IMG/VR virus record: IMGVR_UViG_3300042344_000078
Coordinates: 1-62,412 of that record
DNA from: a virus
Lineage: Duplodnaviria > Caudoviricetes
Direction: 5' to 3' (one strand)
Length of the DNA stretch: 62,412 nucleotides
The notes beneath the pieces were generated by a model, which was given only the letters and a program-made list of their open reading frames with translations, searched no databases and was not told where the DNA came from. Of this stretch, positions 1 through 56,758 are shown piece by piece. The position numbers and the translations under genes are program-made. The first letter of the stretch is position 1. Each line of letters begins with the position of its first letter.

Positions 1-77
1 TATAGGCTCGACCGCCGATCTGTGCGACGCGGCGCATGAAATATTTTTCGATGTCTTTCTCTAGCATAAAAAGTCTC

Positions 78-106
78 TTGACATACCCGTAAAGAAAAGT
101 CTAGTG
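78..106 (+). promoter_or_regulatory. Putative sigma70-type promoter
   Basis: TTGACA at 78-83 with a weak -10-like CTAGT downstream, just before the ORF at 130. Confidence 0.4.
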
Positions 107-129
107 TCGAATCACTGAAAGGTAAGGTA

Positions 130-1215
130 ATGACACACAGTAATATCGTCGGCGGCTCGTCCGCAAAGCGTCTAATTAAATGCCCTGGCTCTCGTAAGTT
201 AGTGGCGGAATTACCCCCTAAACCGACAAGCAGTTACGCGGAAGAAGGTTCGCGTCTGCACGACGCCATGCACATGATCTTGTCGCACGGCGCGAAGGTC
301 GACGACTACACGGATAATGAGAAGATTATCCTAGCGCTTGACGCGTTGAATGAAATCGACCCTAATAACGAGTTGGAGTTTGCCACAGAGGTTAACGTTC
401 ACTTTGGAGGCTTCCTTGCCGGAGTTTTTGGTAGTTGCGATCTCGCTGGCCGCATACGCAATCGCGCGATACTGCTAGACTGGAAGTTTGGAGACGGCGT
501 TGCTGTCGACGCAGAAGAGAACGAACAGCTTATGTTCTACACGGCGGCCGGTATGCGCACGCCAGAACTGCGCTGGGTGTTTGAGAACGTCGACGAGATC
601 GAACTAATCATCGTGCAGCCGCCGTATGTAAAGCGCTGGGTGACGACGCCCGGTCGCATAAAAGCGTTTGAGCGCACGCTGTATGATGCTGTGCAGCAAT
701 CTTTCAAGCCCGACGCGCCGTTTGCCGCTGGTGATCATTGCCGTTGGTGTTCGGCTAAGCCTGTCTGTCCGTTGCTTACAGGTAAACTTGAGCGCGCCGT
801 TGCGACTAAAGTGAAGGCGATTGACCCGGAGAAAATGCAACATGCTTTGGCGATGGCGATACTTGCGGAAGAATGGGCTAAAGGCGTTCGTGAACTGGCC
901 CAGACGATGCTGGAAAATAACGCGCCAGTGCCGGGGTGGAAACTCGTGCCCAAACGGGCCACTCGCCAATGGGCTGATCCTGTTACGGCGGAAGCGACTT
1001 TTAATGAAATGGGATTGGGTTTCACGGAGTTCATGGAATTAAAATCGCCGGCACAAATCGAAAAGGCGCTTAAAAAGCGTCATATTGCGATGCCGGAAGG
1101 TTTTACCGTTTCCATGTCAACAGGTAACACGATAGCGCCGGAGAGCGATCCCCGTCCTGCCGTGCTTACAATAGGCAAGGACATCCGTTCTGCCTTCTCT
1201 AAGCTAAAGGTCTAG
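130..1215 (+). CDS. DUF2800-like Cas4/PD-(D/E)XK exonuclease
   Basis: N-terminal GGSSAKRLIKCPGS, EGSRLH, GSCD...LDWKFG nuclease motif, NEQLMFY, C-terminal HCRWC..KPVCP cysteines. Confidence 0.85.
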   Translation: MTHSNIVGGSSAKRLIKCPGSRKLVAELPPKPTSSYAEEGSRLHDAMHMILSHGAKVDDYTDNEKIILALDALNEIDPNNELEFATEVNVHFGGFLAGVFGSCDLAGRIRNRAILLDWKFGDGVAVDAEENEQLMFYTAAGMRTPELRWVFENVDEIELIIVQPPYVKRWVTTPGRIKAFERTLYDAVQQSFKPDAPFAAGDHCRWCSAKPVCPLLTGKLERAVATKVKAIDPEKMQHALAMAILAEEWAKGVRELAQTMLENNAPVPGWKLVPKRATRQWADPVTAEATFNEMGLGFTEFMELKSPAQIEKALKKRHIAMPEGFTVSMSTGNTIAPESDPRPAVLTIGKDIRSAFSKLKV

Positions 1216-1217
1216 TC

Positions 1218-1844
1218 ATGTCTAATATTGTGAAGTTCGGCAACGCCAATCTCCCCACCGCTGCGTCTCTGGCTGAGTCGCTGCGTAAACTCGATACTGA
1301 CGCTGGCGTCGGTTCGGTCATCCTGAAAATGGATAAGACCGGCCATTGGGTTTACGGCGCGGATCAGACTGAGATCGACAAAGACGGACGCTGGGCGGTC
1401 AATCCGTTCTCGTTCGTCCACGGTTTCATCGCGTGGGGCGAAGGCGAAGTGCTTGGCGAGAAGATGGTGTCCATTACGGAGCCGCTTCCCGAACTGGACG
1501 TGCCCCCGCCTGGCGCTAAGCGCGGATGGGAGCCGCAGGTCGGCATGAGCGTCAAGTGCCTCGACGGTGAGGATGCTGGCACGGAAGCCCGCTACACGGT
1601 CACGTCCGTTGGCGGTAAGCGCGCTATGCACCAGCTTGCCATGAAGGTTGCCGATCAGGTCGAGAAAGATCAGGACGCCCCTGTGGCCGTCGTGAAACTC
1701 GGCTCGGAATATTATCAGCATAAGTCCTACGGTCGCGTCTACACTCCGGTGTTTGACGTGATCGAATGGATTTCGCTCGACGGTGCGCCAGCCGAATCGG
1801 TCGATGGCTCTACCGCAGACACTGGCCGTCGTCGTCGCGGCTGA
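1218..1844 (+). CDS. Putative phage ssDNA-binding / recombination protein
   Basis: Follows a DUF2800-like gene as in many phages; YQHKSYGRVYTPVFDVIEW motif. Confidence 0.55.
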   Translation: MSNIVKFGNANLPTAASLAESLRKLDTDAGVGSVILKMDKTGHWVYGADQTEIDKDGRWAVNPFSFVHGFIAWGEGEVLGEKMVSITEPLPELDVPPPGAKRGWEPQVGMSVKCLDGEDAGTEARYTVTSVGGKRAMHQLAMKVADQVEKDQDAPVAVVKLGSEYYQHKSYGRVYTPVFDVIEWISLDGAPAESVDGSTADTGRRRRG

Positions 1845-1852
1845 TGATAGAG

Positions 1853-1880
1853 AGGCGGCGGCTTAGGCCGCCGTCTTTTT
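1853..1880 (+). terminator. Rho-independent terminator
   Basis: AGGCGGCGGC-TTAG-GCCGCCGTCT stem followed by a T run. Confidence 0.8.
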
Positions 1881-1892
1881 CTGGGAGAGCCG

Positions 1893-2162
1893 ATGACTGA
1901 CTATACCGACCTAATCGAACGGCTGCGCGCTCCCGTGCCGACTGTCTATGACTGCAAAGACGCCGCCGACGCATTAGAGGCGCAGGCACGACGGATTGCG
2001 GAGTTGGAAAAGATGCTCGCCGTGCATCGTCTGGCGGTTGACGTTGACGCCTTAAAAGCCCGCATCGCGGAGTTGGAAGCGGAGAACGAAGAACTGAAAA
2101 AGGCAATTTCTAAACCGTGGATGGGTTCTGCCCGCGCCGCTTATCTGGGAGAGAAGGAATGA
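1893..2162 (+). CDS. Array gene 1, modular coiled-coil small protein (MTDYTDLIERLR...ARAAYLGEKE)
   Basis: 89-aa ORF, RBS GGGAGAG upstream, ends in the 33-bp junction repeat. Confidence 0.85.
   Translation: MTDYTDLIERLRAPVPTVYDCKDAADALEAQARRIAELEKMLAVHRLAVDVDALKARIAELEAENEELKKAISKPWMGSARAAYLGEKE
2130..2162 (+). repeat. 33-bp junction element R1
   Basis: GCCCGCGCCGCTTATCTGGGAGAGAAGGAATGA; identical at 2426 and 2803. Confidence 0.95.
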
Positions 2163-2458
2163 CTGACTACACCGATTTAATCGAACGGCTGCGTGGGAAC
2201 GATATGCCTTGGTCTGTCAAAGACGCCGCCGACGCATTAGAGGCGCAGGCGGGGCGGATTGCTGAGTTGCGTAAAGAAGCTGACATGATGCACAGCGAAT
2301 ACAAGACAGCCCGCGCCCGCATCGCGGAACTTAAAGCGGCGCTGAAGCCGTTTGCTGACAAGGCGGATAAAGCCGAAGGCCCGTTTGAGCCGCCGTATCC
2401 TGTGGACTATTCGTTATGGAGAGCCGCCCGCGCCGCTTATCTGGGAGAGAAGGAATGA
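2159..2458 (+). CDS. Array gene 2 (99 aa, MTDYTDLIERLRGNDMPW...ARAAYLGEKE)
   Basis: ATGA overlap with gene 1; RBS inside R1. Confidence 0.85.
   Translation: MTDYTDLIERLRGNDMPWSVKDAADALEAQAGRIAELRKEADMMHSEYKTARARIAELKAALKPFADKADKAEGPFEPPYPVDYSLWRAARAAYLGEKE
2426..2458 (+). repeat. 33-bp junction element R2
   Basis: Identical to R1. Confidence 0.95.
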
Positions 2459-2835
2459 GTGACGACTTTATTGCGCTGCTGCGCGACGAACTTGCGGAAA
2501 TGGCGTCAACCGCTTCCGTCGATATGGAATTGTGGAACAGGTTTTCAAACCGCGTTCTTAAAGCCGCAAACGTCATTGAAGAACAAGCCGTCCGCATTGA
2601 GGACATCGCAGAGAAATACAACAACGCTCTATTGTCGCCTGTTACAGAGAAGATGCTGAAAAACGCGGTTGAAGAGATTGTTCAGTTAAAGGCGGCGCTT
2701 AAGCCCTTCGTTGACATGGCAGACGAGTATGACGCCGCTTTTCCTCGGCCCTTGAATATTTGCCTTGCAGAATATCCAGAGGATTACCCTTTGTGGTGTC
2801 AAGCCCGCGCCGCTTATCTGGGAGAGAAGGAATGA
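2455..2835 (+). CDS. Array gene 3 (126 aa, MSDDFIALL...ARAAYLGEKE)
   Basis: ATGA overlap; RBS inside R2. Confidence 0.85.
   Translation: MSDDFIALLRDELAEMASTASVDMELWNRFSNRVLKAANVIEEQAVRIEDIAEKYNNALLSPVTEKMLKNAVEEIVQLKAALKPFVDMADEYDAAFPRPLNICLAEYPEDYPLWCQARAAYLGEKE
2803..2835 (+). repeat. 33-bp junction element R3
   Basis: Identical to R1. Confidence 0.95.
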
Positions 2836-3047
2836 GTGGTTTTGGTTTCGGAAAAGGACCGCCTTTGACGGCGGAACACCAAGCGGTGCATGAAATCCGC
2901 GCTGATGAAACGCTGGCGCTACGCGCCCGCATCGCGGAACTTGAAGCGGAAGTTGCTGACTTGAACGAGTGTCTTACCCTTGCCCACATGGACGGTTTTG
3001 AAAAAGGGCGTGACGCCGCCCGCGCCGCTTTGGGAGAAAAGGAATGA
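2832..3047 (+). CDS. Array gene 4 (71 aa, MSGFGFGKG...ARAALGEKE)
   Basis: ATGA overlap; RBS inside R3. Confidence 0.85.
   Translation: MSGFGFGKGPPLTAEHQAVHEIRADETLALRARIAELEAEVADLNECLTLAHMDGFEKGRDAARAALGEKE
3018..3047 (+). repeat. 30-bp variant junction element R4
   Basis: GCCCGCGCCGCTTTGGGAGAAAAGGAATGA: one codon shorter, frame preserved. Confidence 0.9.
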
Positions 3048-3208
3048 CTGAACCCAGATCAATAGAACTTGAACTTCGCTGGCTGCGCGCACGTTTTAAC
3101 GACGCAGAGTGGGAGCAAGATGAAGGGATGATGGCTTCACTCTCTTATCAAATCAATCGGTTGGAAATGCTACAATCCTTGGGCGAACGATTCGACGTAA
3201 ATCACTGA
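3044..3208 (+). CDS. Array terminal gene 5 (54 aa, MTEPRSIELELRWLRARF...), not in the ORF track
   Basis: ATGA overlap with R4, open to TGA at 3206-3208. Confidence 0.7.
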   Translation: MTEPRSIELELRWLRARFNDAEWEQDEGMMASLSYQINRLEMLQSLGERFDVNH

Positions 3209-3220
3209 TTTTGTTCGAAC

Positions 3221-3272
3221 TTGACACGCTCAACGTGTTGTGCAATGATCGAACTGTGAACAAATCACACAA
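3221..3272 (+). promoter_or_regulatory. Conserved phage promoter/leader motif
   Basis: TTGACAC-N12-GTGCAATG-ATCGAACTGTGAACAAATCACACAA; related copies at 5713, 56134 and 54601. Confidence 0.75.
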
Positions 3273-3290
3273 TAACTAAGAGGCAATACC

Positions 3291-4283
3291 ATGCGACCGA
3301 CTCAGTTAGAAGCTACTCTTACGGCTCTTATCTCTATCAATCGCACGACTACTATCGAAGGCGCACCCGGTGGTGGTAAGACTACCATTGTTCATGCCGT
3401 CGCCAATAAGATGGGTAAGCACTACATCGAACGGCATCTCCCTACGATGCTTGTCGAGGACTTTGGCATACCCGTTATCGGTGGCGATACGCTGACTTAT
3501 AAAATCCCTGACTGGTTTCCTTCCAAGGGTTCTTCGTGGGATGATGGTAAGGGCGGTGTGCTATGCTTCGACGATAGGAACCAAGCTAATGCAGATATTC
3601 AGAAGGTGCTGGCAAACATTTGTCAGGCTCGTAATCTGCATGGTGTTCCCCTTGCTGATGGCTGGACTGTCGTTTCTACTGGCAATCGGCAGTCTGATCG
3701 TGCTGGCGCAAACCGCGTTCTTAGCCATCTGCGTAACCGTGAAACGGTTATTGAGTTGGATACTCACTTGGATGACTCGACGCAGTGGATGATCGACAAC
3801 GCCGTTAAGCCAGAGGTTATCTCATTCCTTCGCTTTCGTCCCAACCTGCTGCATGACTTCGATCCGCAGCGTGATAGCAACCCCACGCCTCGCTCTTGGG
3901 TCGAAGGTGTTAGCGCAGTGCTTGGCGTTGTGCCTTCCGAGTCTGAGTATGAGTGCTTCAAGGGCGCAGTAGGTGAAGGCGCTGCGGCTGAGTTTGTTGG
4001 CTTCATGCGTATCTTCCGCAAGCTGCCTAATCCTGACGCTATCTTGCTTAATCCAGATAAATCCGATGTGCCTTCCGATCCGGCGACACTCTATGCCTTA
4101 TCGGGCGCTCTGGCTGAACGTGCGTCGGATGCTAACTTTGCTCGTGTCTGCACATATGCCGAGCGTATGCCGCCGGAGTTTTCTGTGCTGACCATTAGCT
4201 ATGCCGCCCGCAAGAACCCATCACTGGCTTCAACCCAAGCGTTTACGACATGGGCTGTTAAGCACCAAGACGTTTTGTTCTAA
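3291..4283 (+). CDS. MoxR-like AAA+ ATPase
   Basis: Walker A GAPGGGKT, Walker B LCFDD, STGNR sensor, PTPRSW. Confidence 0.85.
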   Translation: MRPTQLEATLTALISINRTTTIEGAPGGGKTTIVHAVANKMGKHYIERHLPTMLVEDFGIPVIGGDTLTYKIPDWFPSKGSSWDDGKGGVLCFDDRNQANADIQKVLANICQARNLHGVPLADGWTVVSTGNRQSDRAGANRVLSHLRNRETVIELDTHLDDSTQWMIDNAVKPEVISFLRFRPNLLHDFDPQRDSNPTPRSWVEGVSAVLGVVPSESEYECFKGAVGEGAAAEFVGFMRIFRKLPNPDAILLNPDKSDVPSDPATLYALSGALAERASDANFARVCTYAERMPPEFSVLTISYAARKNPSLASTQAFTTWAVKHQDVLF

Positions 4284-4711
4284 TGGGCTATCGTTCTGAT
4301 GTGGCGTTGGGGATTGCGTTCCCCAACAACGCCGCGCTGGTGTCGTTCCTAACAGCGCAGAAGCTAACAGGCACAAAGGAGATGCAGGAAGCGATTAAAC
4401 AGTTTGGTGTTACGCATATGTCCGCAGCCTACAAGGAATACGTTGTGCTGTGGGTGTATGAGGAACAAGTGAAGTGGTATCCAGACTACCCAGAGGTGAT
4501 GGCCTACAACCAGATCATCCAGAACGCCAAGGACTTAGACTATTCAACGATTGAAATAGAGATAGGAGAGGAAACGAATGACATAAAGTTTGAGGTTAAT
4601 CACGGCGAAAAATCAGACTGTGCCTGTCTATATGACTCGTTTGATATTCGGCGTGAAATAAACCGACCTGAAAGCTGGCAAGATATATCCTCGTTTGTCA
4701 AGGAGAACTAA
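4283..4711 (+). CDS. Hypothetical phage protein (MGYRSDV N-terminus)
   Basis: 142-aa ORF coupled to the AAA gene. Confidence 0.75.
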   Translation: MGYRSDVALGIAFPNNAALVSFLTAQKLTGTKEMQEAIKQFGVTHMSAAYKEYVVLWVYEEQVKWYPDYPEVMAYNQIIQNAKDLDYSTIEIEIGEETNDIKFEVNHGEKSDCACLYDSFDIRREINRPESWQDISSFVKEN

Positions 4712-4713
4712 CC

Positions 4714-5565
4714 ATGAACCTTAACGACCGTGCGCTGCTGGTGCAGCTTAACATTTCACAGTGGACGGCGCGCAAACATGACAAGCGCGCTACGGAGGAC
4801 GTTGCTGCGATGCACAACGCTGGCAAATCTGCTGGCCGGTATCACAAAGCGTTGCTTCCCATGAACGATTATCTGGATAACGTGCAAAAGAAAGCCACGC
4901 TGATCCGCACCCGTTACTACCAGAACACGTTGCCGTGGGCGATGGATGGCACTCAGATGCTTCCATCTGCTAATTACCTGTCGTTTATGACTGACTTCCG
5001 CAAACAGAAAGCGGAGTGGGAGTATGCCGTTGCGTTGTTTATCGACCACTACGATGACATGAAAACCATAGCCAAGCGTGTGCTTGGTTCGCTCTACTCC
5101 GAGGCTGACTACCCGTCGGAGCAAGAGATCATCCACAAATTCAAGATGGATATGGCTGTGTTTCCTGTGCCTTCCACTGACTTTCGTGTGCAGTTATCGA
5201 ACGATGAACTAAACCATATTCGTGGTGACTTAGAAGCTAGGCTTGCTACTGCACAGCAAGCGGCTGTGCGTGATGTGTGGGATCGACTGTTCGACAAAGT
5301 AAAACATATTGCTGACAAGCTGGCCGATCCCAAAGCTATCTTCCGTGACAGCATGGTGGAGAACGCCAAAGAATTGTGCGAACTACTGCCAAGGTTAAAC
5401 TTTACTGATGATCCGAACCTTGAGATGATGCGCGCAGAAGTGGAAGCCAAACTAATCGGCCATCATCCAGAGGCGTTGCGTAACAACCTTGACTTGCGAC
5501 ACGACACTGCGTCCGAAGCGAAAGCTATCATGGATAAGATGTCTGTGTTTATGAATGGCTTATGA
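4714..5565 (+). CDS. DUF3150-like helical protein
   Basis: 283 aa; TLPW, YPS and FRDS motifs typical of the phage family found beside AAA/VWA genes. Confidence 0.6.
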   Translation: MNLNDRALLVQLNISQWTARKHDKRATEDVAAMHNAGKSAGRYHKALLPMNDYLDNVQKKATLIRTRYYQNTLPWAMDGTQMLPSANYLSFMTDFRKQKAEWEYAVALFIDHYDDMKTIAKRVLGSLYSEADYPSEQEIIHKFKMDMAVFPVPSTDFRVQLSNDELNHIRGDLEARLATAQQAAVRDVWDRLFDKVKHIADKLADPKAIFRDSMVENAKELCELLPRLNFTDDPNLEMMRAEVEAKLIGHHPEALRNNLDLRHDTASEAKAIMDKMSVFMNGL

Positions 5566-5659
5566 AATACGATAGCTGCCAGTTTGCTATTGTATAGTCT
5601 CACCTGACTTGCATGGTGATCGAGTGGGACTCGAAAACTGGGAAACGAGGAAGCACTAA

Positions 5660-5704
5660 GAGTCGTCGCGGCAATCGCGTAACACGCTGCGGCGACTCAC
5701 TTTT
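5660..5704 (+). terminator. Hairpin / likely terminator
   Basis: GAGTCGTCGCGGC pairs with GCTGCGGCGACTC (two G-U), followed by ACTTTT. Confidence 0.55.
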
Positions 5705-5712
5705 CCGGCGAC

Positions 5713-5764
5713 TTGACACGCGCCGCAACGTCGTGCATCATCGGGCTGTGAACTGAACACACAA
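5713..5764 (+). promoter_or_regulatory. Conserved phage promoter/leader motif
   Basis: TTGACAC-N13-GTGCATCA-TCGGGCTGTGAACTGAACACACAA. Confidence 0.7.
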
Positions 5765-5776
5765 AGGACTAAGGCA

Positions 5777-6880
5777 ATGGACTTACTCAAGCGGTTATCG
5801 AAAGCCAAGACTGGCCTAATCCTAGAGCATCCCTTCATCGGATCGGTTGCCATTAACATGCCGTTCGAACTGGACGAAACCATTGCGACTGCTGGCACCA
5901 ATGGCAAGCGTGTTAGATTTAACCCTGCGTTTATTGAGAAGCTGACTGATGAGGAACTTAAATTCCTTGTCGCTCACGAGTGTCTCCATCCCATGCTCGA
6001 ACATAACTATCGCCGCAATGGACGGACTGCCAAGCGTTGGAATCAGGCGGCTGACTATGTGATTAACCAGCTTCTTGTCGATGAAAAGATTGGCAAGTTT
6101 ATCGACGGCGGCTGTCTCAATCAGGCTACCTATAACGCTGGCGGTGGCACCAGTGACGGTATCTATAACATACTGCCGGAAGATAACGGCGAAGGTGGAG
6201 GTGACATCGGTGGCGCTGGCAATGATCTGGAAGATGGTGAAGGTTCACCTGCCGAACAGGAACAACAAGCCGCAGAATGGCGTGTCAAAGTTGCCCAAGC
6301 CGCGCAAGCCGCGAAGATGATGGGTAAACTGTCGGCTAACATGCAGCGTTTTGTTGACGAAGTATTGCAGCCCAAGGTTGCATGGCAGGATGTGTTGCGT
6401 CGGTTTGTGCAGAAAGCCAAGACGGATCAGCGCACGTTCGCCCGCCCCAACCGTAGGTTCTTGGCGCAGGGTTTGTATATGCCGTCCATCACTGGCGAGG
6501 TTCTTGGTGAGATTGCCATTGCCGTTGATTGCTCTGGCTCTATCGGTCAGCGTGAACTCAATGAGTTTGCTACTGAAATCAAAGCCATGAAGGAAGATGG
6601 CAACCCGTCTGCGCTACATATCGTTTACTTTGACAGTGAGGTTAGTCACTACGATCACTATGGTCGTGACGATGAGGTTGTTATTGAGCCGCACGGTGGT
6701 GGCGGCACAGCGTTCAGCCCCATCTTTCAGTATCTTGAGCAAAACAATATTAACCCTGTCGCTTGTGTCGTGCTTACCGATTTGTATTGCAATGACTTTG
6801 GTGACACGCCGGACTACCCTGTGCTGTGGGTAACCAATGGCACAGACCAAGCGCCTTGGGGTGAAGTGGTTAAGATGTAA
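5777..6880 (+). CDS. DUF2201-like metallopeptidase + VWA domain protein
   Basis: HECLH (HExxH), WNQAADYVIN, MIDAS DCSGS, GGGGTAF, LTD. Confidence 0.85.
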   Translation: MDLLKRLSKAKTGLILEHPFIGSVAINMPFELDETIATAGTNGKRVRFNPAFIEKLTDEELKFLVAHECLHPMLEHNYRRNGRTAKRWNQAADYVINQLLVDEKIGKFIDGGCLNQATYNAGGGTSDGIYNILPEDNGEGGGDIGGAGNDLEDGEGSPAEQEQQAAEWRVKVAQAAQAAKMMGKLSANMQRFVDEVLQPKVAWQDVLRRFVQKAKTDQRTFARPNRRFLAQGLYMPSITGEVLGEIAIAVDCSGSIGQRELNEFATEIKAMKEDGNPSALHIVYFDSEVSHYDHYGRDDEVVIEPHGGGGTAFSPIFQYLEQNNINPVACVVLTDLYCNDFGDTPDYPVLWVTNGTDQAPWGEVVKM

Positions 6881-18265: not shown

Positions 18266-21148
18266 GTGGACATCACTATGAATACGTTGGATTTTCTTCA
18301 GCGGGTACTTCCATCTGATGGGTACTATGTCGCCGTTGCGATTAAGAATAAAAAAGTTTTGCTGCACCGCTTTGTGGACAACATAGTATCTCTAGAGACG
18401 GTAGTAGACGGTATCAGTGCTGGTGGTGGCAATGCGTACTTCGCAGTTGCATCATTTGTTACAAACACTGGCGGTCGAAAACAAGATAATGTGCATAGCT
18501 TAAAGTCTTTATATCTAGATATTGATTGCGGTGTGGATAAACCATACCTCACCCAGCGCGATGGGCTTAAAGCCTTATCCACATTTGTTAAAGAGACGCA
18601 GCTTCCGACGCCAATGATTGTCTCATCGGGCAACGGACTCCATGCGTACTGGATTCTAGATCGTGAGTTGCCGCGTGATGAATGGCAACCGCTGGCCGAC
18701 GCACTGAAGAACGCAACGCAGCAGCTTAAGTTTGAGGTTGATCCCGTGGTGCCAGCCGACAGCGCCCGCATACTGCGGCCAGTCGGGACGATCAATACGA
18801 AGGGCGGGGAACTTGTAACTAGTTTGTTAGCAAAGGATGAGACACACAACGTAGAATATATTGACAGGATACTGTCGCCGTATCGTGTTAACCAAATAAA
18901 GATAAGACCACCGAGCGCGCAGTTCACTCCACTGATTGATCTCAGCACCAAGACTGAGTTCCCCCCGACCAGCGCCGCTGCGATGGTGGATAAATGCCAG
19001 CAGATTCGGTGGGGTGTAGAGAACCAGAAGAAAGTCCAAGAGCCATTCTGGTACGCCTTGCTGGGCATCGCCGCCTATTGCGAAGACCCAGAGGCCACTG
19101 CCGTGGCATGGAGTAAAGACCACCCAGAGTACAGCTACGATAAGACTGTAGCTAAGCTAGAGCATTGGAAGGCGTCAGTCTCAGGGCCGACAACCTGCAA
19201 CAAGTTTCAAGAACTGCGTTCAAGTGGATGCGACAAATGCAAGTTCAAAGGAAGCATAACAACTCCCTGCTCGATTGGCGTAACATATAAGTCTGTTGAG
19301 ATTGATCCTTCCGCACCCGACGAAGTGGCCCACCTCACGCCACTACCACGGGCATACAAACGCGCTAGCGACGGTGGCATTAAGCAGACGATTGACAGCA
19401 CCGACGTAGACATTTGCCCCTTCGACCTGTACCCCGTTGGCTATGGGCGCGACGAAGCGCTGGGCTACGAGACTGTGCGGTATAGGTGGAACAGACCCCA
19501 TGCTGGGTGGCAACCACTGGTATTCAGGCAAGCCTACCTAGCTGACGGAAGCCGCGAGTTCGCGTCGGCCATCGCAGACCAAGGCATTGTGCTACTCCAC
19601 AAACATCAGACGGAAAAATTCCAGATGCTTCTGCGCACCTACATGGATGAACTGCGTAAGATGAAAGCCATGACCAACATCCACACTTCTATGGGGTGGA
19701 AGGATGATAGGTCACAATTCCTAATTGGCGACACGCTGTTCAGACGGCACGACGATGGCTCTGTATCGGAAGAAGTTGTCTCGATCTCGCAGACATCGAA
19801 CCGCGCAGCCCCTACCATGTACGGCGTATCTGGTACGTTGGAAGAAGCCACCAACTTCACCAGCATTATTGATAAAGGCAGACTGCCCATCCAAGGATGG
19901 GCTATGATGATTGGTCTGGCGGCACCGATGTTCGAGTTCACCGGCATCAAGGGCTTGACCATCAATCTGTACGGGCCGTCAGGGTCAGGCAAGTCATTAG
20001 CTCAGCTTATGATTCAGTCCCTATGGGGCAATCCTGATATGCTCCATTACGCATCCAAGTTTACACACAATGCCCTCTATGCCCGCATGGGTCTATGCAA
20101 CAACCTGCCCATGACGATTGATGAAGCCACCACGATGGCGGCTAAAGACATCGGTGATTTCCTGTACGATGTGTCGCAGGGTAGAGAGAAGGCTCGACTG
20201 ACTCGCACTGCAGAGGAACGCAACGCCCGTACGTGGCGGTTACCCTGTATAACATCTGCCAATAAGTCTCTGAATGCCTCGCTTATATCGACTGGCTTGG
20301 AGACCGACGCTCAGATGATGCGCCTCTTTGAGATCACAGTCACCCCGCATCCGTTATTCGAGAAGTCTACAGATGCAGGACAACGTATTTATAACTTCGT
20401 GTCAGTCCATTATGGGACTATTGGTCGGGCCTTCATCCGCAAGCTGTTGGAGATTGGTGCTGAAGACTTAGCCACCATCATTGATAACCACAAGGCTGAG
20501 TTCACCAAGAAGTATAACTGCAAGTTCGAAGGCACCGAACGGTTCTGGGAGCAGAGTGTTATCCTCGCTGACCTAGCTGGCAAGCTGGCCTGCGAGTGGG
20601 GGCTGTTCAAGTTTGACTATACCAAATGCACCAATGCTGTCCTGTCACAGATGGGTTCGATCCGTAAGAATGTGCAGGAGAATGTCACGGATTCCTTCGA
20701 CCTGATCTCTGAGTACCTTAATGCTCATAGCGAGGCAACGATTATCGCTACCCATACTGGTGGTAGCAAGGTGTATGTAGATACCACCCGGCTACCGCGT
20801 AAGGATGTGCGTGTTAGATTTGATCTGTACCGCCCGTCGCATTCCGATCCCTATGAACGAGGCGTTGTCCTGCTGGATAAGACGCACTTCAAACGCTGGC
20901 TCTCCAACAACGGAGCCGATATGCGTACCGTAATGAAAGACATCATAGCGGCGAACGCAGATGCTACGCCCAAGATTGGCAAGGCTTATCTAGCCAAAGA
21001 CTCGTCGATCAAACTGGGCCAGACCTACGTTATTGGTGTCAGTCTACAGCACCCGCGCCTTGTCGGCATCCTTACTGACAAGGATGACAACGCCATCAAC
21101 AACGATCTGGCTGGCTTAACGGTGCTGCAAGGAGGAAGGGTAGATTAG
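18266..21148 (+). CDS. Primase-helicase (AEP/RepB-like primase + Cys-rich domain + DUF927 ATPase)
   Basis: LDID, SSGNGLHAYW, ARILRPVGT; Walker A GPSGSGKS, Walker B MTIDE. Confidence 0.85.
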   Translation: MDITMNTLDFLQRVLPSDGYYVAVAIKNKKVLLHRFVDNIVSLETVVDGISAGGGNAYFAVASFVTNTGGRKQDNVHSLKSLYLDIDCGVDKPYLTQRDGLKALSTFVKETQLPTPMIVSSGNGLHAYWILDRELPRDEWQPLADALKNATQQLKFEVDPVVPADSARILRPVGTINTKGGELVTSLLAKDETHNVEYIDRILSPYRVNQIKIRPPSAQFTPLIDLSTKTEFPPTSAAAMVDKCQQIRWGVENQKKVQEPFWYALLGIAAYCEDPEATAVAWSKDHPEYSYDKTVAKLEHWKASVSGPTTCNKFQELRSSGCDKCKFKGSITTPCSIGVTYKSVEIDPSAPDEVAHLTPLPRAYKRASDGGIKQTIDSTDVDICPFDLYPVGYGRDEALGYETVRYRWNRPHAGWQPLVFRQAYLADGSREFASAIADQGIVLLHKHQTEKFQMLLRTYMDELRKMKAMTNIHTSMGWKDDRSQFLIGDTLFRRHDDGSVSEEVVSISQTSNRAAPTMYGVSGTLEEATNFTSIIDKGRLPIQGWAMMIGLAAPMFEFTGIKGLTINLYGPSGSGKSLAQLMIQSLWGNPDMLHYASKFTHNALYARMGLCNNLPMTIDEATTMAAKDIGDFLYDVSQGREKARLTRTAEERNARTWRLPCITSANKSLNASLISTGLETDAQMMRLFEITVTPHPLFEKSTDAGQRIYNFVSVHYGTIGRAFIRKLLEIGAEDLATIIDNHKAEFTKKYNCKFEGTERFWEQSVILADLAGKLACEWGLFKFDYTKCTNAVLSQMGSIRKNVQENVTDSFDLISEYLNAHSEATIIATHTGGSKVYVDTTRLPRKDVRVRFDLYRPSHSDPYERGVVLLDKTHFKRWLSNNGADMRTVMKDIIAANADATPKIGKAYLAKDSSIKLGQTYVIGVSLQHPRLVGILTDKDDNAINNDLAGLTVLQGGRVD

Positions 21149-24100
21149 TCTGCCGCTTCCTGTTCTCCGGTCAGCGCTTTGAATTGTTCCGCGAACCTGC
21201 GTTCACGCGCAGTCTGCTGCTTCGGCGCACTCTTCAGGTTGGCTATGGCCGATGGCTTGAGGCCGACACGCTTCTTGGCAGACTGGAGAGCCAGCCATTC
21301 AGACTTGGCAGCTTCCACACCAGAACTATCGCCAGCGCGCTGAGCCTCAACGAAGTCGCGGCGCACCTCAGTCGTACGCTCACTGAAGTATTTGTCGTAC
21401 TCGTACATCTCTTGGCGCTTACGGCGGACGTTAGCCATGTTGGTGGACGTAAAGCCAAGTCCCTGCAACATACTGTCAAGAAGCGTAAACTCTTCCGGCG
21501 ATACAACGAGGTCGCCGTTACGGCGCGTGACACCCTTATCGAACGTCTCGCGGTATGCCCGCATCGCGCTCTTGATTCCGTTGGGCATCATAAACTCGAC
21601 GCCTTTCCAGTAATCTCCCTGCGCCATCATGCCCATGCCGTCTGCGAAGTTGGCGGCAGTACCCATAAGCGGGCCACCCACACCAAGAAGCGTACGGCCA
21701 AGACCTTCACGCGAGGTAAGATCAACGTCAGTGTACGGCAGCGGAGAGAAGACATTACCCAAGCCAAGCTGGCCGGAGACATCGACACCGAGGCCAGCCG
21801 GTACACCTTTGAGGATCGTGTCAGCTAACCAGCCATCTCCGATAACCTGACGGAGGAAGCGTTCCTCATTCACCGGCTCATCCGGTGGTCCAAAGATAGC
21901 CGCCAGAATGTAGGACATGAGCGTAGCCAGTGGCAGTCCAAGCGCACCAGTGAACACAGCCGTCTGACCGATGACGTTACGCATGACTGCACGGGCAATG
22001 GCGCGTTCTTCCTTCGATGCACCTGCAAACATATTGTAGCCATTGCGGATCAGCAAAGACGCCTGCATGACTTGGTATTTGCGGAACTGAGTAATCACCT
22101 TGCTGAAGGCGAACGCATTGAAGTAGCGTGGTGCATTCAGGCTAGAGTAATCACCTTGCGTCTGGCTCAGAACTTCAGCCGCATAGTTCAACGCTTGCTG
22201 ATTCGAACGACCATCGGCTTTGGCTAGACGGTACGCAGCCATACCAGCCGTGACACGGTTGGCGACTTCGACCTGACGAGTCAGCGCTGTCAGTTTGTGC
22301 ATGACATCTTGAAGCGCTTTCTGCGGACCACTGGTCTTGAAAGTCTCCCAGTATCCAAGGTCATAGCCCATACCAATGTCGAGCAGTCCGTTGTCACGGA
22401 GCGTCGTCAGAACATCCTGCTCTTCCTTGGAATATGCTGAGCCATCTAGCTTGCGCATCTTGGCTACGTCAAACTCGCCGCGCATAAACTTGTTGAAGTC
22501 GCCTTTGTTCTTGAACAGGCTCGTACCAAGTTCTTTATACGTGCGATTAATCTCGTCGGATGTACGCCCATAGCCAAATTTAGCCGCCATATAAGGGAGA
22601 CTAAGCATGTAGGTCTGAGTCGCATTCTGCAGGTAATACCGAGGTAGCGTAAGCAGCGTCCACATGGAGTTGAACGCCATCAGTTTGTCCTGCAGAGGCG
22701 TCGGCGTATAGGTCAACCCTTGGACATGGCGGCGTAGCACTTCATTCAGCGCCCGCATACGGTCGGCTTTAGAGCCATCAATACCAGCAGCCGCAGCTTC
22801 TTCGTCGGACATACGAGCCTGACGGCTCATCTCTTCAAGCGAGTTCGACACTTCGCTATCATTGGTCATCGACGCAATGAAGTGCGCGTCAGCCGTACCC
22901 TTGGTAGCGAATGCCCGCAGCATGTCGTCATAACCCGCAACGCCAGTACGTGCGAGTTGGTGACGGCGGGCGCTGTTCTCAGCAAGCGTACCAATATACA
23001 GGTCGGTGATAAGCTGATTGATTCGCTCAACTTCTTGAGGCTGGAGATCAGCGGCAAGGTCTTTCTCCACCAGCGTCTTGATTCGCTGGAGGTTGAGCCA
23101 TGCAGGGACATCGACTTTGCCCGGCGACAACTGGCGTTCGAACGCCTCAGTAAACATGCCGGGGAACTGAGCCTTCATCTCCTCTTGCTTCTGCATCGCA
23201 GCGCCAAGCGACTCAGAGAAGATCACAATGTAACTGTCAGGATCAGCACGCAGGGCTTCGAGTTCCGCCTTCTCTTCAGCGGTACGATCCATTGCTGGGA
23301 TAGATTCCAGTTCGCGGAACCGCGCCGACTTGCCGACGGTGACGAACTGACCGAAGCGAGACAGCGGAGCATACGGACCTTCACGCTCCTTGAAGATGGT
23401 ATTCATAAGCTGCAATCTACGTGCAACATCTTCCTGACGCTGCTGCTTGATGTCAGTCGGGAGCGATTCGTACTCTGGTCCCGTGAGTTCGCCCCTAATC
23501 TTTTCTACAATAGCTTGACGCATACGCTTCGAGGTCTTGAAGCCATGCTCGAATATCTGATCCGCCACACGCTGAGCATTTTCAGGCAGCGCTTCGTACT
23601 GCTCTTTGGCAGTCGGGTCTATTACAACTTGTTTACCAATCCATGTAGGCTGGTATCCCCATGCTTGGTCAATAGTGCTGCTGGCTAGAAACTTATTCAG
23701 AGTCTCGCGTGCGTCACCAAGATCACCAGTCTGGAGCATGATCTGATCGACTTCCTGACGCAGCTTATTCGTCAGGGTCATACGGTTAATCATAAAGTCG
23801 AAGTACGTCCGCACCGCTGGCAGCATGGGACTGATCCAGTCCACAAGGTCACGACCAAAGGCCATGCCATATGCTTTCTTCAAAGCGCCATCACGAATGT
23901 TTCTGGCGATAGAGAGCGCAGCCGACTGCATCGGAGCCGGTACCGCACCGGCTACGAACTGCCTGATCGACTCGTCTGTGCTGCGACGTTCCGCTGTTGT
24001 GGCAGTATCCTCCATCGGAGCAATGCCGCCACCGCCGGGAGGAGTCGTATCCTCCTTGATACCGAGGATTTCAGAGAAGTCTGGACCGCCAAGACCGTTG

Positions 24101-27100
24101 AGGAAGTCCGTGACATTCTGTGTAGGCATACCTTCTTTGCGACCAGCATCGAACAACTTGTTCATCAAACGGCCAAGCGTCGAGAAGAACCGTTCAGTGA
24201 TCGTCAGCGGCTTACGCTGCGTCGTAGCCCATTTAGATACCTGATCGGCAAACCATTCGCTAAAGCTATCCCAGTAACCCGGATCAGCCTTAAACATTTC
24301 TCCAGCCGATGCACGACCACGCGCACCGAGAGAACGCACAGATTGCTTGGCTCTCTGCGGCGTACGGAGTAGCCGCATCCATTCAGCCATGGTGGGCATG
24401 GCATATTTAGGATCGGCTTTCCGTAAGAACTTTTCGAAGTCACTCTTGATAGCGGCCTGAACTTCAGGCGAAGCATTGGCGAAGGCGTTAAACTCTACAC
24501 CATGACCGATCTCGTGAGCGATAACTTCGAGCGCCAAAAGATACCGACGCCCACCTGCTTGATTAACCAAGTCTTGGTTAAACAGGATAACATCGGTGCC
24601 GTCACCCAAACGCGTATAAAGGCCACGCGTCGTAGTTGACAACAAATATTTGCGCAGTGAGCCTTTGAGTACAGTTAACTGCGTGTCGGTGATACCGAAC
24701 TGTTTACCACTTTTGGCATTGACAAGTCGCTGCAAATCCCCCTTGGCGATAGAGCCAAAGAGAATCTTGCGGTTGCCAAAGCCAAGCGCCTTCGTCAGTG
24801 CAGACACGTAGTTGGTAAGTCGTGCATCAACATCAGCGATAGTCGTGATGTTACCAACCTTAGTGCCAGCCGGAGTCGGCGTGATTACTTCTTCCGGCTG
24901 CGGCCCGCCTTCGACAACGAGATTGCCACCGCCTGCTTCACCGCCGCCTTCTTGGACTTGGGCCGCGACGTTCCGATTGACCCCTTCGCTTGGTACTTGT
25001 CCACCAACTCCTTGATATTGGCCGACACCACCTTGTTGGACTTGCCCGACTTGAGCGGCATTGGGAACCTCCACTGGTTGAGTAGGAGCGGCAACAGCCG
25101 CAGGAGCGACGGGCGCAGGAGCGGCAGTCGGAGTAGGAGTCGGAGCAGGCGCAGCCGCAGGAGCCGAAACAGGGGCGACAGGAATTGTCGTGGGGTCTGC
25201 TATATATCCATCAAGCTGTTTGAGTAGCTTCTCGCCAGCGTTGATGTGACCCTTGATGATTCGCTCAGCTTCTTTGTACGTGATGCCCTGCGCCTGAGCC
25301 ATCTGAGTAAGCCGCGCCATGGCAGCCTTCGACGGACCGAGAAGTTTTTTTCGTTCCCTCTGTTCAGCAGCGACAAACGCGCGCTGACCCTGAAGGTCTT
25401 GAACAGTCGGAGCCTCTGTAAACTCAAGCGGCTGCACAGGAAGAAGCGTAGCCTTAGCAGCTTCACGACGCGCGTTCATCGCAGTCGTCTCGGCAGCCAA
25501 AGCAGCGCGACTCTGTATCTGCTGTGCGCCAAGTTGGCGCACGATCTGAGCGCCACGACGAAGCCTAGAAACACCGCCTTCCAACGGCATTTCTGTCTGT
25601 GTCTCCACAAGTGGAAGCTGCAGTTGGATCGGCGTAGTAACTGGTATCGTAGCAGGAGTTGGCGCAACGCCAGCACCCCCTTGGAGCGGCAGTGGAATCT
25701 GCTCACCGGGGGGAGTCTGAAGTACACCTTCTGGGAAACCAAATAGCGGCAGTCCTTCGACACCGACCTGCGCGGGCATTGCAGGCGTAGGTGTGGGAGC
25801 AGGAGTCGTGGGCGGTGCAGCGGCAACGCCACGTAGAAGATTCTGTTGCCCAAATGGTAACGTCGGCTGTTCTGCAAGACGTTGCGCCATAGCCTCAGAC
25901 CGACCAGTAGTCGTCAGCCTTCCAGCAGCGTCGATAGCTGCGATAGCTTCACGCGCCCTAGCAATCTGGCTCGTCAGCATGGAGACGCGAACTGGGTCGA
26001 GCGATCCAGCACCAGCAGCGGCAGCCTCAAGCTGGGCATTAGACTCAGCGATCAGACCTTCGAGGCGACGGCGTTCATCAATGGCGGCGAAGTCAGTCTC
26101 ACGAGCAGCGGCAAGCGTCTCACCTGTGGGCTGCATAGTTAACGTCGGAGCTACGCCGAGTTCAGCACCGGGGAACAGTTCGCCCTGTGCGCCCGGTTGC
26201 GGCCCAACAGTCGGAGCTTCTGGCTTCTCACCACCAGCGCCTTCAAGCAAATTGGTGGGTTTCAACGGAGCAGCAACGCCACCCACACCACCGAATGCAC
26301 CACCAAGCACAGCGCCAGCGCCAGCAGCGATGAGTGCAGACTCGCCGTACTTTTCAATGACGTAAGGCGCAAGCGCCTTCCAGTCTGAAGCATTAAGCTG
26401 GCGACGGAACTCAGGATCAAAGACAGCCTGCTGAGCAAGCTGGGTTGCACCTTCAGCAAACGCTTCAGACGCAGCGCCTTCGGCAGTACCAGCGGCTATC
26501 GCGCCAATGCGCGAACTGGCTGCACGTTCACCGGCTTTGACAACCGCATCTTTGAAGAACGGCGAGAAGCCACGGGCAATGACGCCATCGGCTAAGGTCT
26601 GAAGAAGCGTCGTACCACCAGCCGCAGCAGCGATCTGCATACGTGTGCTGGGGTCATCTAGATTATAGGCAGGCGTACCATCAGGATTCTTGGCGTTCTT
26701 CGCTGACTCGTAGAAGTTCTGGAACTCAGACGGGTATGTTGACGCAGCGAGGCCAGTCAGTGCGCCGACTGTACGAGCGCGCCCAATATTAGCAGCAACG
26801 CCAGCAGCCCGAGTGGCGGCAGCAACGCCCCCAACAGCGCCAAGACCACCAGAGACAAGTGAAAAACCAGCAGAAGGAATACCTTGAGCAACGGCGTCCC
26901 ATATGTTTGACAGCGTCGAGTTCGACTGCTGGATGAGGGCGGACCGTGCCTGCTCAGCTTTAGTCTGACCAAAGGTTGATTCGGCAAACCTAGCGATAGG
27001 TTCGCCAACAGATGGAGCACCAACAGTGGTGAGGATATCACCGACGCCACCGATTGTCTGCTCTGCTAATCCACGCGCGCCGAGGGCGACGTTAGCCCCG

Positions 27101-27570
27101 AACCCACGGGGGGTCTTCAGCTTAGAAACATATGCGCCATAGGCGGCGGGACTCATCGGAACCCAGTCTGTCGCCACGCTTGCGGGCGCAGGCTGCATGG
27201 GTTGGTTAATAAGTTTGGAGCCTTCGGATACGTCGAGCGCATTGGTCGCATCAACGAGACGGCCACCGATCCAGAACTTCTGAGTCGAAGGGCTATATGG
27301 AATGTAGGAAGCAGCGCCACCCATGCCGCCAAGACCTTCAGGCGCAGCCGATCCAGTAACGTCAAGACCAGCAGGTGCGCGCTTAAGTTCTGTAGCTCTG
27401 CGAACTTCTTCGCCTATTACTGCAGCATCAGCCTGTGTCGGGCCAATATTACCGACACCCATCTGTGTAGAAGGATCGCCAAGTGCACGTCCATATGGGC
27501 TGCGCGGTCCAATAGCCATAGCATCTAGTATGGGACTGGCGAACTCTACCCCAATTCTGTCCATTGCCAT
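21145..27570 (-). CDS. Giant internal virion / ejection (polyvalent-type) protein, 2141 aa
   Basis: Last gene of the virion operon; HEIGH zincin-like motif; YAPLSRFG (PLxRFG-like) motif. Confidence 0.8.
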   Translation of the reverse strand: MAMDRIGVEFASPILDAMAIGPRSPYGRALGDPSTQMGVGNIGPTQADAAVIGEEVRRATELKRAPAGLDVTGSAAPEGLGGMGGAASYIPYSPSTQKFWIGGRLVDATNALDVSEGSKLINQPMQPAPASVATDWVPMSPAAYGAYVSKLKTPRGFGANVALGARGLAEQTIGGVGDILTTVGAPSVGEPIARFAESTFGQTKAEQARSALIQQSNSTLSNIWDAVAQGIPSAGFSLVSGGLGAVGGVAAATRAAGVAANIGRARTVGALTGLAASTYPSEFQNFYESAKNAKNPDGTPAYNLDDPSTRMQIAAAAGGTTLLQTLADGVIARGFSPFFKDAVVKAGERAASSRIGAIAAGTAEGAASEAFAEGATQLAQQAVFDPEFRRQLNASDWKALAPYVIEKYGESALIAAGAGAVLGGAFGGVGGVAAPLKPTNLLEGAGGEKPEAPTVGPQPGAQGELFPGAELGVAPTLTMQPTGETLAAARETDFAAIDERRRLEGLIAESNAQLEAAAAGAGSLDPVRVSMLTSQIARAREAIAAIDAAGRLTTTGRSEAMAQRLAEQPTLPFGQQNLLRGVAAAPPTTPAPTPTPAMPAQVGVEGLPLFGFPEGVLQTPPGEQIPLPLQGGAGVAPTPATIPVTTPIQLQLPLVETQTEMPLEGGVSRLRRGAQIVRQLGAQQIQSRAALAAETTAMNARREAAKATLLPVQPLEFTEAPTVQDLQGQRAFVAAEQRERKKLLGPSKAAMARLTQMAQAQGITYKEAERIIKGHINAGEKLLKQLDGYIADPTTIPVAPVSAPAAAPAPTPTPTAAPAPVAPAAVAAPTQPVEVPNAAQVGQVQQGGVGQYQGVGGQVPSEGVNRNVAAQVQEGGGEAGGGNLVVEGGPQPEEVITPTPAGTKVGNITTIADVDARLTNYVSALTKALGFGNRKILFGSIAKGDLQRLVNAKSGKQFGITDTQLTVLKGSLRKYLLSTTTRGLYTRLGDGTDVILFNQDLVNQAGGRRYLLALEVIAHEIGHGVEFNAFANASPEVQAAIKSDFEKFLRKADPKYAMPTMAEWMRLLRTPQRAKQSVRSLGARGRASAGEMFKADPGYWDSFSEWFADQVSKWATTQRKPLTITERFFSTLGRLMNKLFDAGRKEGMPTQNVTDFLNGLGGPDFSEILGIKEDTTPPGGGGIAPMEDTATTAERRSTDESIRQFVAGAVPAPMQSAALSIARNIRDGALKKAYGMAFGRDLVDWISPMLPAVRTYFDFMINRMTLTNKLRQEVDQIMLQTGDLGDARETLNKFLASSTIDQAWGYQPTWIGKQVVIDPTAKEQYEALPENAQRVADQIFEHGFKTSKRMRQAIVEKIRGELTGPEYESLPTDIKQQRQEDVARRLQLMNTIFKEREGPYAPLSRFGQFVTVGKSARFRELESIPAMDRTAEEKAELEALRADPDSYIVIFSESLGAAMQKQEEMKAQFPGMFTEAFERQLSPGKVDVPAWLNLQRIKTLVEKDLAADLQPQEVERINQLITDLYIGTLAENSARRHQLARTGVAGYDDMLRAFATKGTADAHFIASMTNDSEVSNSLEEMSRQARMSDEEAAAAGIDGSKADRMRALNEVLRRHVQGLTYTPTPLQDKLMAFNSMWTLLTLPRYYLQNATQTYMLSLPYMAAKFGYGRTSDEINRTYKELGTSLFKNKGDFNKFMRGEFDVAKMRKLDGSAYSKEEQDVLTTLRDNGLLDIGMGYDLGYWETFKTSGPQKALQDVMHKLTALTRQVEVANRVTAGMAAYRLAKADGRSNQQALNYAAEVLSQTQGDYSSLNAPRYFNAFAFSKVITQFRKYQVMQASLLIRNGYNMFAGASKEERAIARAVMRNVIGQTAVFTGALGLPLATLMSYILAAIFGPPDEPVNEERFLRQVIGDGWLADTILKGVPAGLGVDVSGQLGLGNVFSPLPYTDVDLTSREGLGRTLLGVGGPLMGTAANFADGMGMMAQGDYWKGVEFMMPNGIKSAMRAYRETFDKGVTRRNGDLVVSPEEFTLLDSMLQGLGFTSTNMANVRRKRQEMYEYDKYFSERTTEVRRDFVEAQRAGDSSGVEAAKSEWLALQSAKKRVGLKPSAIANLKSAPKQQTARERRFAEQFKALTGEQEAAD
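24885..25061 (-). CDS. Nested alternative-frame gene, 58-aa basic protein (MPLKSGKSNKVVSANIKEL...KQAVAISLSKAG)
   Basis: RBS GGAGGT 5 nt before ATG; resembles a recurrent small phage family (MPLKKGxSxxxISxNI...KQAVAIAxxxAG); overlaps a low-complexity linker of the 2141-aa ORF. Confidence 0.7.
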   Translation of the reverse strand: MPLKSGKSNKVVSANIKELVDKYQAKGSIGTSRPKSKKAAVKQAVAISLSKAGRSRKK

Positions 27571-55483: not shown

Positions 55484-56099
55484 AGCTAATGGCAAAGCAC
55501 AAGCTAATGGCAAAGCTATAGGCTAGGATTATTTTCTCTATATCCAATAGGTTTAGCCATGATTTTGTAGACATATATTTCACTCAAGGGTTACCGGGCG
55601 CACCAAAAATGCTACTCAAGGGTTACCGGGCCAAGTATTTGATTTTATTGAGTTAATCTAACAATCTAAAATTTAGGGCAACAATCCAAAAGAAACTTAC
55701 ACTCGGTTTTGCCCCGAAACTTTACATTTTAATACCATATGTGTTTGTTTTTCCTATATATATATATAGAGTTTAAGATAAATAATCTAATAATATAGAG
55801 AAATTTGTGTCTTCCTTTCCAAATTTTCAAATTTTTGTTCCACACACGAAAACGCGGCGTCACTCTCTCCCCTCCAAAAATTTTATTTTTTGGTGACCCC
55901 TACGAAAAAATTTTAGATTATTTATATTATTGTTGTTTTCAAAGGCATTTCTCCGATACATTTTAGATTATTGCCATATTGTTGCCACAATTTTTAGATT
56001 ATCGCATGTAAAGTTTCCCTCCAAAACTTTACATTTTGTGGCTCCCATTACCAAACTTTACATCCGTGTAAAGTTTCAGTCTACAAACAAACTTTACAT
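55484..56099. repeat. AT-rich non-coding region with several repeat families (origin/terminus candidate)
   Basis: AGCTAATGGCAAAGC x2, ACTCAAGGGTTACCGGGC x2, AAACTTTACA x6 in both orientations, TTTTAGATTA x3, (TA)n palindrome. Confidence 0.75.
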
Positions 56100-56133
56100 T
56101 TTCACTCCGGCAACCCGTTGAACTTGTGTGCAT

Positions 56134-56740: not shown

Positions 56741-56758
56741 GAAACAGGAGTAGAATCA

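Follow-up and report, generated by a model that had tools for sequence, protein, structure and literature searches.

Ea22 has been described as a mosaic protein in which a short N-terminal part and a central coiled coil are followed by dimeric C-terminal domains that are unrelated to one another, and which forms a tetramer in solution (PMC10834534). In T4-type phages, short conserved sequences at gene borders, the promoter(early)-stem-loop (PeSL) cassettes, serve as sites of recombination through which the non-essential small genes of hyperplastic regions are shuffled (PMC2839356). A highly modular hotspot of small, fast-evolving genes at the recombination locus of lambdoid phages holds Oad2 (HK446, related to P22 EaE), an OLD inhibitor (bioRxiv 10.64898/2026.07.10.737580). 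Here, an array of five small genes at 1893–3208 (+ strand) of the IMG/VR record IMGVR_UViG_3300042344_000078 was analyzed. The window is this complete record of 62,412 nucleotides (nt), which is classed as linear and 100% complete. An earlier note on this DNA, made from its sequence alone, had proposed that the array genes are combinatorial mosaics of sub-gene modules, and the sharing between gene pairs, the module strings and the breakpoints bear this out. The reading considered most probable, at roughly 70%, is a recombination-built array of paralogs that encodes dimeric early binders in a lake phage.

Results

Shared blocks of the array genes

The stop and start codons of the five genes overlap by ATGA. 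The first gene, g1 (1893–2162; 89 amino acids (aa)), consists of modules A, n5, B, E, c1 and G, and the sequence from 1 to 2162 is of what is called A-type context below. It is followed by g2 (2159–2458; 99 aa) with modules A, n4, B, D, F, v1 and G, by g3 (2455–2835; 126 aa), in which an N-terminal helical part of its own precedes F, v2 and G, and by g4 (2832–3047; 71 aa) with modules P1, C, v4 and a variant of G (ARAALGEKE). All are on the + strand, as is g5 (3044–3208, with a second copy at 58852–59016; 54 aa), which is not a member of the family. This small gene is constant and forms the end of the array in the window and in the related loci L006 and L040, directly before the promoter-like site of an ATPase gene. 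A second, identical g2-g3-g4-g5 copy is located at 57967–59016 (+ strand) in the B-type context, i.e., the first early operon. It is preceded there by g1’ (57632–57970, + strand; 112 aa), in which the nine initial codons are those of an SNase-type nuclease gene and N3, D and the last two thirds of g1 follow.

All of the blocks A–G lie where the earlier note had placed them. The copies of block A (1893–1927 and 2159–2193) differ at three positions, all of them synonymous (TAT/TAC, GAC/GAT and CTA/TTA). Block B is identical in 33 of 33 nt between 1955–1987 and 2218–2250, with the similarity reaching 52 nt at 92%; by our own arithmetic, about 1e-14 exact matches of 33 nt are expected by chance within 1.3 kb. 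The 14-mer of block C occurs at 2058, 2315 and 2925, with 28-nt copies at 75–96% identity. Block D at 2267–2301 equals 57707–57741, and the surrounding sequence (57694–57762 versus 2254–2322) is 88.4% identical over 69 nt. The block is also found at 58075–58109, owing to the second array copy, while the site at 57707 falls inside g1’, a fifth family gene that is itself chimeric. Blocks F and G were found in g2 and g3, and the 3’ block (G region) is present in four 45-nt copies at 71–100% identity.

Mosaic relatives in other phages

Scanning IMG/VR with the gene-junction motif described below yielded 41 loci. In the phage database, two records of one unrelated 43-kb temperate phage (MW202613), deposited in GenBank as a complete circular genome, contained an array in which shared pieces, about 89% identical in nucleotides, were combined differently. 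Similarity closure, started from the window genes, collected 131 open reading frames (ORFs), from which eight non-family members were dropped (three SNase-type nucleases, three helix-turn-helix (HTH) proteins and two others). The final set comprised 122 genes from 42 loci (41 from IMG/VR and the GenBank phage), corresponding to 103 distinct proteins.

Among these 103 distinct genes, 2173 of 5253 pairs had one or more tracts of 24 nt or longer in common at an identity of at least 90%, and only 13 of the 2173 were alike over at least 90% of both genes. When 19 modules were defined by coordinates in the stored translations, 43 different module strings were obtained; 20 proteins carry none of the modules. 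Head n4 is joined to tail c1 in three proteins and to v1 in two, and head N3 is joined to c1 in two proteins and to v1 and v5 in one each. Since all four combinations of these heads with c1 and v1 exist, recombination is required. The middle module D occurs with the heads n5, n4 and N3 and with the tails c1, v1 and v5.

Individual genes illustrate the pattern. In L043, the gene at 620–886 has the head of g2 and the body of g1, and that at 16–246 has the N3 head and the body of g2. In L041 (613–930), N2-N3-D continues into the tail of a temperate-phage gene, and modules A, B and E of g1 are joined to F-v3-G in L044 (3495–3827). It was also observed that L017 (849–1382) carries a family head (A, n4, B, E) fused in frame to an XRE-type HTH domain (HTH_3, 2e-11 in one member), and that the same HTH part is free-standing in L039 (3638–4018).

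Breakpoints coincide with conserved blocks

Breakpoints were counted as the distinct internal ends of tracts of at least 40 nt with at least 90% identity. Of 441 such ends, 53% lay in 12-mers common to at least ten other genes, as compared to 14% of 3717 interior 12-mers. Tract ends are thus concentrated at shared blocks, a coincidence that the earlier note had suggested looking for. The commonest contexts of tract ends were LRAAR, IAELE, DLRAA, ARIAE, AADAL and LKPFA, which correspond to the blocks B, C, F and G. These blocks are conserved in their nucleotides: AADALEA was encoded by one 21-mer at 16 of 19 sites in 15 loci, and RIAEL by one 15-mer at 35 of 71 sites. The analyzed sequences show that modules and cassettes are reassorted with breakpoints at nucleotide-conserved blocks.

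The microhomology recombination proposed in the earlier note is the wrong term for most events, as the exchange blocks are 15–50 nt of near-identical DNA. Homologous recombination over short homology fits tracts of this length. Only the origin of g1’ resembles a deletion at imperfect microhomology of about 10 nt: its start equals the first nine codons of the SNase-type gene, then continues as N3, and the join lies in an imperfect match of about 10 nt. An SNase-type gene stands before the array in L040 (Pfam SNase, 5.9e-11), L038 and L006.

Contigs from four lake metagenome runs depart from the window at 2166, 2172, 2254, 2328–2344, 2423 and 2461, and their continuations read as other modules of the family. 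As read from the letters of the loose ends, the sequence continues into a g5-like start at 2166, into N2 at 2172 and into the start of g4 at 2461.

A coding gene junction and whole-gene shuffling

The first junction motif (2130–2166, + strand) comprises the last codons of the C-terminal helix, followed by GGGAGAGAAGGA, the ribosome-binding site, and by ATGA, in which start and stop codons overlap. Further copies are located at 2426–2462, 2803–2839 and 3018–3051 (+ strand). The motif (block G) has a dual role, as it encodes the C-terminal helix and also supplies the Shine-Dalgarno site and start codon of the next gene. Consecutive family genes overlapped by 4 nt in 37 and by 8 nt in 17 of 60 pairs, and the largest arrays contained 15 (L021) and 11 (L013) family genes. 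Whole genes change partners as well, e.g., the g3 type, which is present in six loci, has four different downstream and five different upstream family neighbors. No + strand promoter-like site was found inside 57632–59016, and one weak stem was located there.

By this comparison, the genes evolve by homologous recombination at short, nucleotide-conserved, helix-coding blocks (AADALEA, RIAELEA, ALKPFA, LRAARAA). The gene junction, whose final codons also provide the ribosome-binding site and the overlapping start of the gene that follows, is a further site of exchange. Sub-gene modules and whole genes are thereby reassorted, both inside single arrays and among unrelated phages from a common habitat, presumably by general or phage-borne homologous recombination during co-infection.

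Coding potential and predicted structures

Eleven distinct comparisons of equal-length homologs were made, and in ten of them the ratio of nonsynonymous to synonymous substitution rates (dN/dS) was below 1 (0.09–0.98). In addition, the array genes have ribosome-binding sites and coupled ATGA starts. Together with the recurrence of the g3 protein on 78 contigs, these features suggest that the array genes are coding.

The AlphaFold2 (AF2) model of g2 (alignment of 41 rows) has helices at residues 5–11, 18–72 and 85–95 and loops at 12–17 and 73–84, with a predicted local distance difference test score (pLDDT) of 85.8. The model of P0032, a 75-aa relative (66 rows), has helices at 3–40 and 60–71 and a loop at 41–59 (pLDDT of 86.4). 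The constant scaffold with variable inserts envisaged in the earlier note is a fair description of this predicted anatomy, with the conserved blocks helical and the unrelated inserts in two loops.

Modelled as a homodimer, P0032 scored 0.54, while the best of three controls scored 0.01. Among proteins of solved structure, 20 of 30 that are pairs of one chain and 1 of 23 that are single chains attained the 0.54 mark. Contact agreement between the runs was at least 91%, and the partner had a pLDDT of at least 76. Residues 20, 24, 27, 31 and 34 contact their own counterparts, and residues 47–64 of both chains also touch. Since the contacts at 20–34 are between equivalent residues, a parallel coil is indicated, and the model supports self-binding of P0032 as a parallel dimer. 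The proteins would accordingly start with a short helix, followed by a variable loop, a long helix pairing in parallel with that of a second copy, another variable segment and a conserved helix at the C-terminus.

Extent of the family

No Pfam, NCBIfam or PHROG family was obtained for g1–g5 and 103 relatives; the scan returned only low-scoring coiled-coil noise. A profile was built from 30 C-terminal modules (alignment A3), consisting of RIAxLEAALKPFA, 20–35 variable residues and GDLRAARAAL, and used to search 1.84 billion proteins. At E ≤ 0.001, 3891 cluster representatives (50% identity) matched, and 134 did so at E ≤ 1e-10. Nearly all of the matches listed were 65–170 aa long with the module at the C-terminus; in a few longer proteins (P0075, P0153, P0158 and P0167) the module is present twice. 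The g2 and g3 types match the profile by construction, since both are among the rows of A3 (g2 as the first one, the g3 type as L017 679–849); g1 and g4, which lack LKPF, have only the RIAEL and ARAA(Y)LGEKE ends. These matches point to a large unannotated family of small phage proteins of about 65–170 aa, of which the array genes other than g5 are paralogs.

The identical g3 protein was present on 78 contigs, and its 26 relatives include partial-coverage matches at 75–81% identity. At least half of the words sampled from 1400–2700 were present in 22 of the 24 runs listed, and all 22 are labelled lake water metagenomes. The three nearest clusters in the protein atlas (0.92, 0.92 and 0.91) are unnamed, and the cluster look-up returned no informative names. 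An Ead/Ea22-like cluster at 0.83 is noted as a lead only. A profile search of the PDB gave four rows at E ≤ 1, and the junction motif was absent from a collection of genomes of 185,579 species. A 23-mer of a hub block matched one contig of a Rhodanobacter metagenome-assembled genome; this match was judged to be due to chance, as the ORF lacks the LKPF and C-terminal motifs of the family. As a further observation, L042 (1404–1760, − strand) and L021 (9346–9702, − strand) encode an N-terminal part with HTPGPW ... ANA.L.A.AP, which matched nothing in Pfam and NCBIfam and which resembles a motif common in prophage Ead/Ea22-like proteins.

Genomic context

Replication genes are encoded on the + strand (polymerase at 11052, helicase at 14737, primase at 18266) and structural genes on the − strand, with the terminase at 52298–53686. 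Matches to an internal virion protein and a head-tail adaptor suggest a podovirus-like phage. The array at 1893 is preceded by a gene for a DUF2800 PD-(D/E)XK nuclease (130–1215; Pfam 1.1e-46) and a 208-aa gene (1218–1844) and is followed by the gene of an AAA_5-type ATPase. A 68-aa gene ends at 57630 before the second array copy, and the ATPase gene begins at 59099 after it. This B-type array (57.6–59.0 kb) belongs to the first + strand operon, in which it lies 1.4 kb from the start at 56202, and a conserved promoter/leader-like element precedes the operon. Hence, the array genes are early genes.

The element, as aligned with its copies, spans about 80 nt (56120–56204, + strand) upstream of the array-bearing early operon. 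Its related copies at 3208–3293 and 5700–5779 precede the ATPase and VWA-type genes, and a TTGACA-17-AATGAT site with TG is located at 59029–59057, corresponding to 3221–3249. The three copies have the layout TTGACAC ... GTGCAATGATCGAAC ... TGTGAACAAA ... CACACAA ... ATG and precede successive early gene blocks; the element before the DUF2800 gene (60–132) is unlike them. The divergent region between structural and early genes (56000–56110) contains several copies of words of about 10 nt in both orientations (AAACTTTACA / TGTAAAGTTT), which may be operators or an origin. Among the structural genes, 21145–27570 (− strand) encodes a protein of 2141 aa, the C-terminal 800 residues of which match DarB-like antirestriction PHROGs (1e-51); it may be an injected virion protein.

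Discussion

Proposed function of the array and points against this reading

By the proposed reading, the proteins would most likely bind, as dimers, to host or defence proteins and so serve takeover or counter-defence, and the variable segments would set the binding specificity. A role in early host takeover or anti-defence is suggested by the position of the genes and by analogy with lambdoid accessory regions, namely the mosaic Ea22 genes and the recombination-locus hotspot with Oad2.

Several points weigh against this reading. Neither a fold nor a sequence match to a characterized protein was obtained, as Foldseek against the PDB with the AF2 model gave none of 13 rows at E ≤ 0.001 and the best PDB profile match, to apolipoprotein A-IV, had an E-value of 0.061. 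The host was not found by two scans of 185,579 species genomes, one with 0 matches and one with a single chance-like match. The dimer was modelled for the relative P0032 and for no gene of the window, and the comparison of g3 with L029 gave a dN/dS of 1.54, on 13 differences. The relatives were picked via the 3’ junction motif, hence the sharing of block G is partly by construction, and one habitat and lineage are favored; gene pairs and tract ends are not independent events. Finally, all loci but one are metagenome assemblies, in which repeats can give false joins, and the join in g1 of the window is suspect.

A bolder version, considered rather unlikely, regards the arrays as a combinatorial repertoire carried by phages. 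Helix blocks would stay identical in their codons because this enables recombination to regroup variable loops and whole genes, and the shared coil would allow heterodimers between members of an array. Each phage population would in this way have a rapidly renewable library of binders against host defence or takeover targets. If so, the repertoire would be comparable, on the viral side, to cassette-based antigenic variation in bacteria.

Duplicated sequence and possible assembly joins

The mosaics could instead be largely artefacts of short-read assemblers that join different phages at repeats. The record itself gives reason to weigh this, because it repeats 4.6 kb of its own sequence: 1970–6604 recurs at 57778–62412, the record end, as a direct repeat of 4635 nt at 99.957% identity with two mismatches (1988 and 2024). 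Therefore, the whole array is present twice. The window 1–1969 has no counterpart at 55809–57777 and, thus, the repeat is not the simple wrap of a circle. L024 matches the window at 1–2166 and L045 at 1171–2166, both with 99.8–99.95% identity including the two diagnostic bases, and both continue beyond 2166 with other genes. The B-type context, which the record shows from 2163 onward, is backed on both sides by the independent contigs L006, L031 and L040. The record changes from the A-type to the B-type context somewhere in 2025–2162, a stretch of 138 nt between the last diagnostic differences that is identical in both contexts. The switch is either a real recombinant or an assembly join at this identical stretch. 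Logan contigs of four runs cover the array in pieces of 60–450 nt, and none of the pieces listed bridges from before 2024 to beyond 2163, a gap that proves nothing.

Since the switch lies inside g1, the adjacency of g1 and g2 is uncertain and may be an assembly join, while the array g1’-g2-g3-g4-g5 at 57.6–59.0 kb is the well-supported one. The record resembles a 55.8-kb unit with 1.97 kb of other context joined inside g1 and may be a chimeric or over-extended assembly. The earlier note overlooked three things, namely that 4.6 kb are duplicated, that g1 may contain an assembly join and that block G has a dual role.

As an explanation of the mosaics at large, assembly error is unlikely. The same chimeras occur on contigs of different metagenome numbers (the n4-E-c1 gene in L016, L019 and L043, and g3 in six loci), the exact g3 protein is found on 78 contigs, and such an array is present in a GenBank record deposited as a complete circular genome. 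Furthermore, reading frame and junction signals are kept in all combinations. Most hub blocks measure 15–50 nt, which is shorter than the final k-mers of common assemblers.

Conservation without exchange and dedicated machinery

If the genes were ordinary diverging paralogs, the blocks would be their most constrained protein motifs, preserved by purifying selection without reassortment. The coincidence of the blocks with predicted helices is in line with this, and a similar C-terminal motif with other codons and residues (RAAAAALKETGDE in L007 and L013) indicates that conservation is partly at the protein level. Such an origin is nevertheless very improbable, as hub blocks are identical at synonymous sites within otherwise unalignable genes, and 2160 of 2173 similar pairs are alike only in part. 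Two heads and two tails occur in all four combinations, and the long variable modules v1, v2 and v3 (20–29 aa) recur nearly unchanged behind different N-terminal parts.

A dedicated diversification machine acting on the blocks, i.e., a diversity-generating retroelement (DGR), a shufflon-type site-specific recombinase or a homing nuclease, would account for a block identity of 15–21 nt across many phages that exceeds the needs of protein constraint and for the nucleases beside arrays in both contexts (DUF2800 PD-(D/E)XK at 130–1215; SNase-type in L040, L038 and L006), but it is likewise very improbable given that the record contains no reverse transcriptase (PF00078, 0 matches), that the repeats are direct and in frame rather than inverted, that no family was found for any array gene and that the flanking genes vary between loci, so that no constant partner enzyme is seen. 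The DGR in particular was rejected on the PF00078 result and because the repeat differences are not confined to one base.

Significance and comparison with known systems

Host-takeover and anti-defence functions of phages reside mainly in small early genes, most of which lack annotation. In the present family, the units of exchange are unusually small: modules of 8–30 residues, rather than whole genes or domains, pass between unrelated phages from one habitat at defined nucleotide blocks. Should binding specificity be set by the variable segments, the family would amount to a library of dimeric binders provided by nature. It would also lend itself to measuring how recombination drives protein innovation in natural phage populations. 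With regard to annotation, a single gene-junction motif can serve to retrieve such arrays from metagenomes.

The array genes resemble the Ead/Ea22-like genes (PF13935) in that both are small early accessory genes. Ead/Ea22-like genes lie near the recombination genes of the lambdoid exo-xis region; no exo/bet/erf-type recombinase was identified, and in the A-type context the array follows the DUF2800 PD-(D/E)XK nuclease. The models of the array family likewise combine a coil stalk with a variable dimeric end: a long helix is predicted for g2 and P0032, and a parallel dimer with an intertwined C-terminal segment for P0032. In contrast to Ea22, the proteins are half its size, the modules are segments of 8–30 aa rather than whole domains, and the arrays contain up to 15 paralogs, with a conserved C-terminal helix doubling as the translation start of the next gene. 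The phrase used in the earlier note, reminiscent of but distinct from ead/ea22, is apt, as g1 scored 15.5 bits (E 0.026) against PF13935, which has a gathering score of 27. None of g2–g5 matched PF13935, and 1 of 103 relatives did so at E ≤ 0.001 (best 1.9e-4).

With the PeSL cassettes, the array shares short conserved sequences at gene borders as recombination sites for small genes. PeSLs are non-coding promoter-terminator units, whereas the border element of the array is coding and carries a ribosome-binding site and an overlapping start and stop; exchange in the array also takes place inside genes. A PeSL-type cassette, with a sigma-70-like promoter and a stem-loop terminator between genes, was rejected, since the genes overlap by 4 or 8 nt and no + strand promoter or terminator lies inside the array. 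The likeness to the lambdoid hotspot with Oad2 is in position and evolutionary behavior only; hosts and phage types differ from those of the array phage. The pattern thus extends the known mosaic evolution of phage accessory genes and is not a new mechanism; it is seen here in a large, new and unannotated family, at an unusually fine grain and together with a coding junction element.

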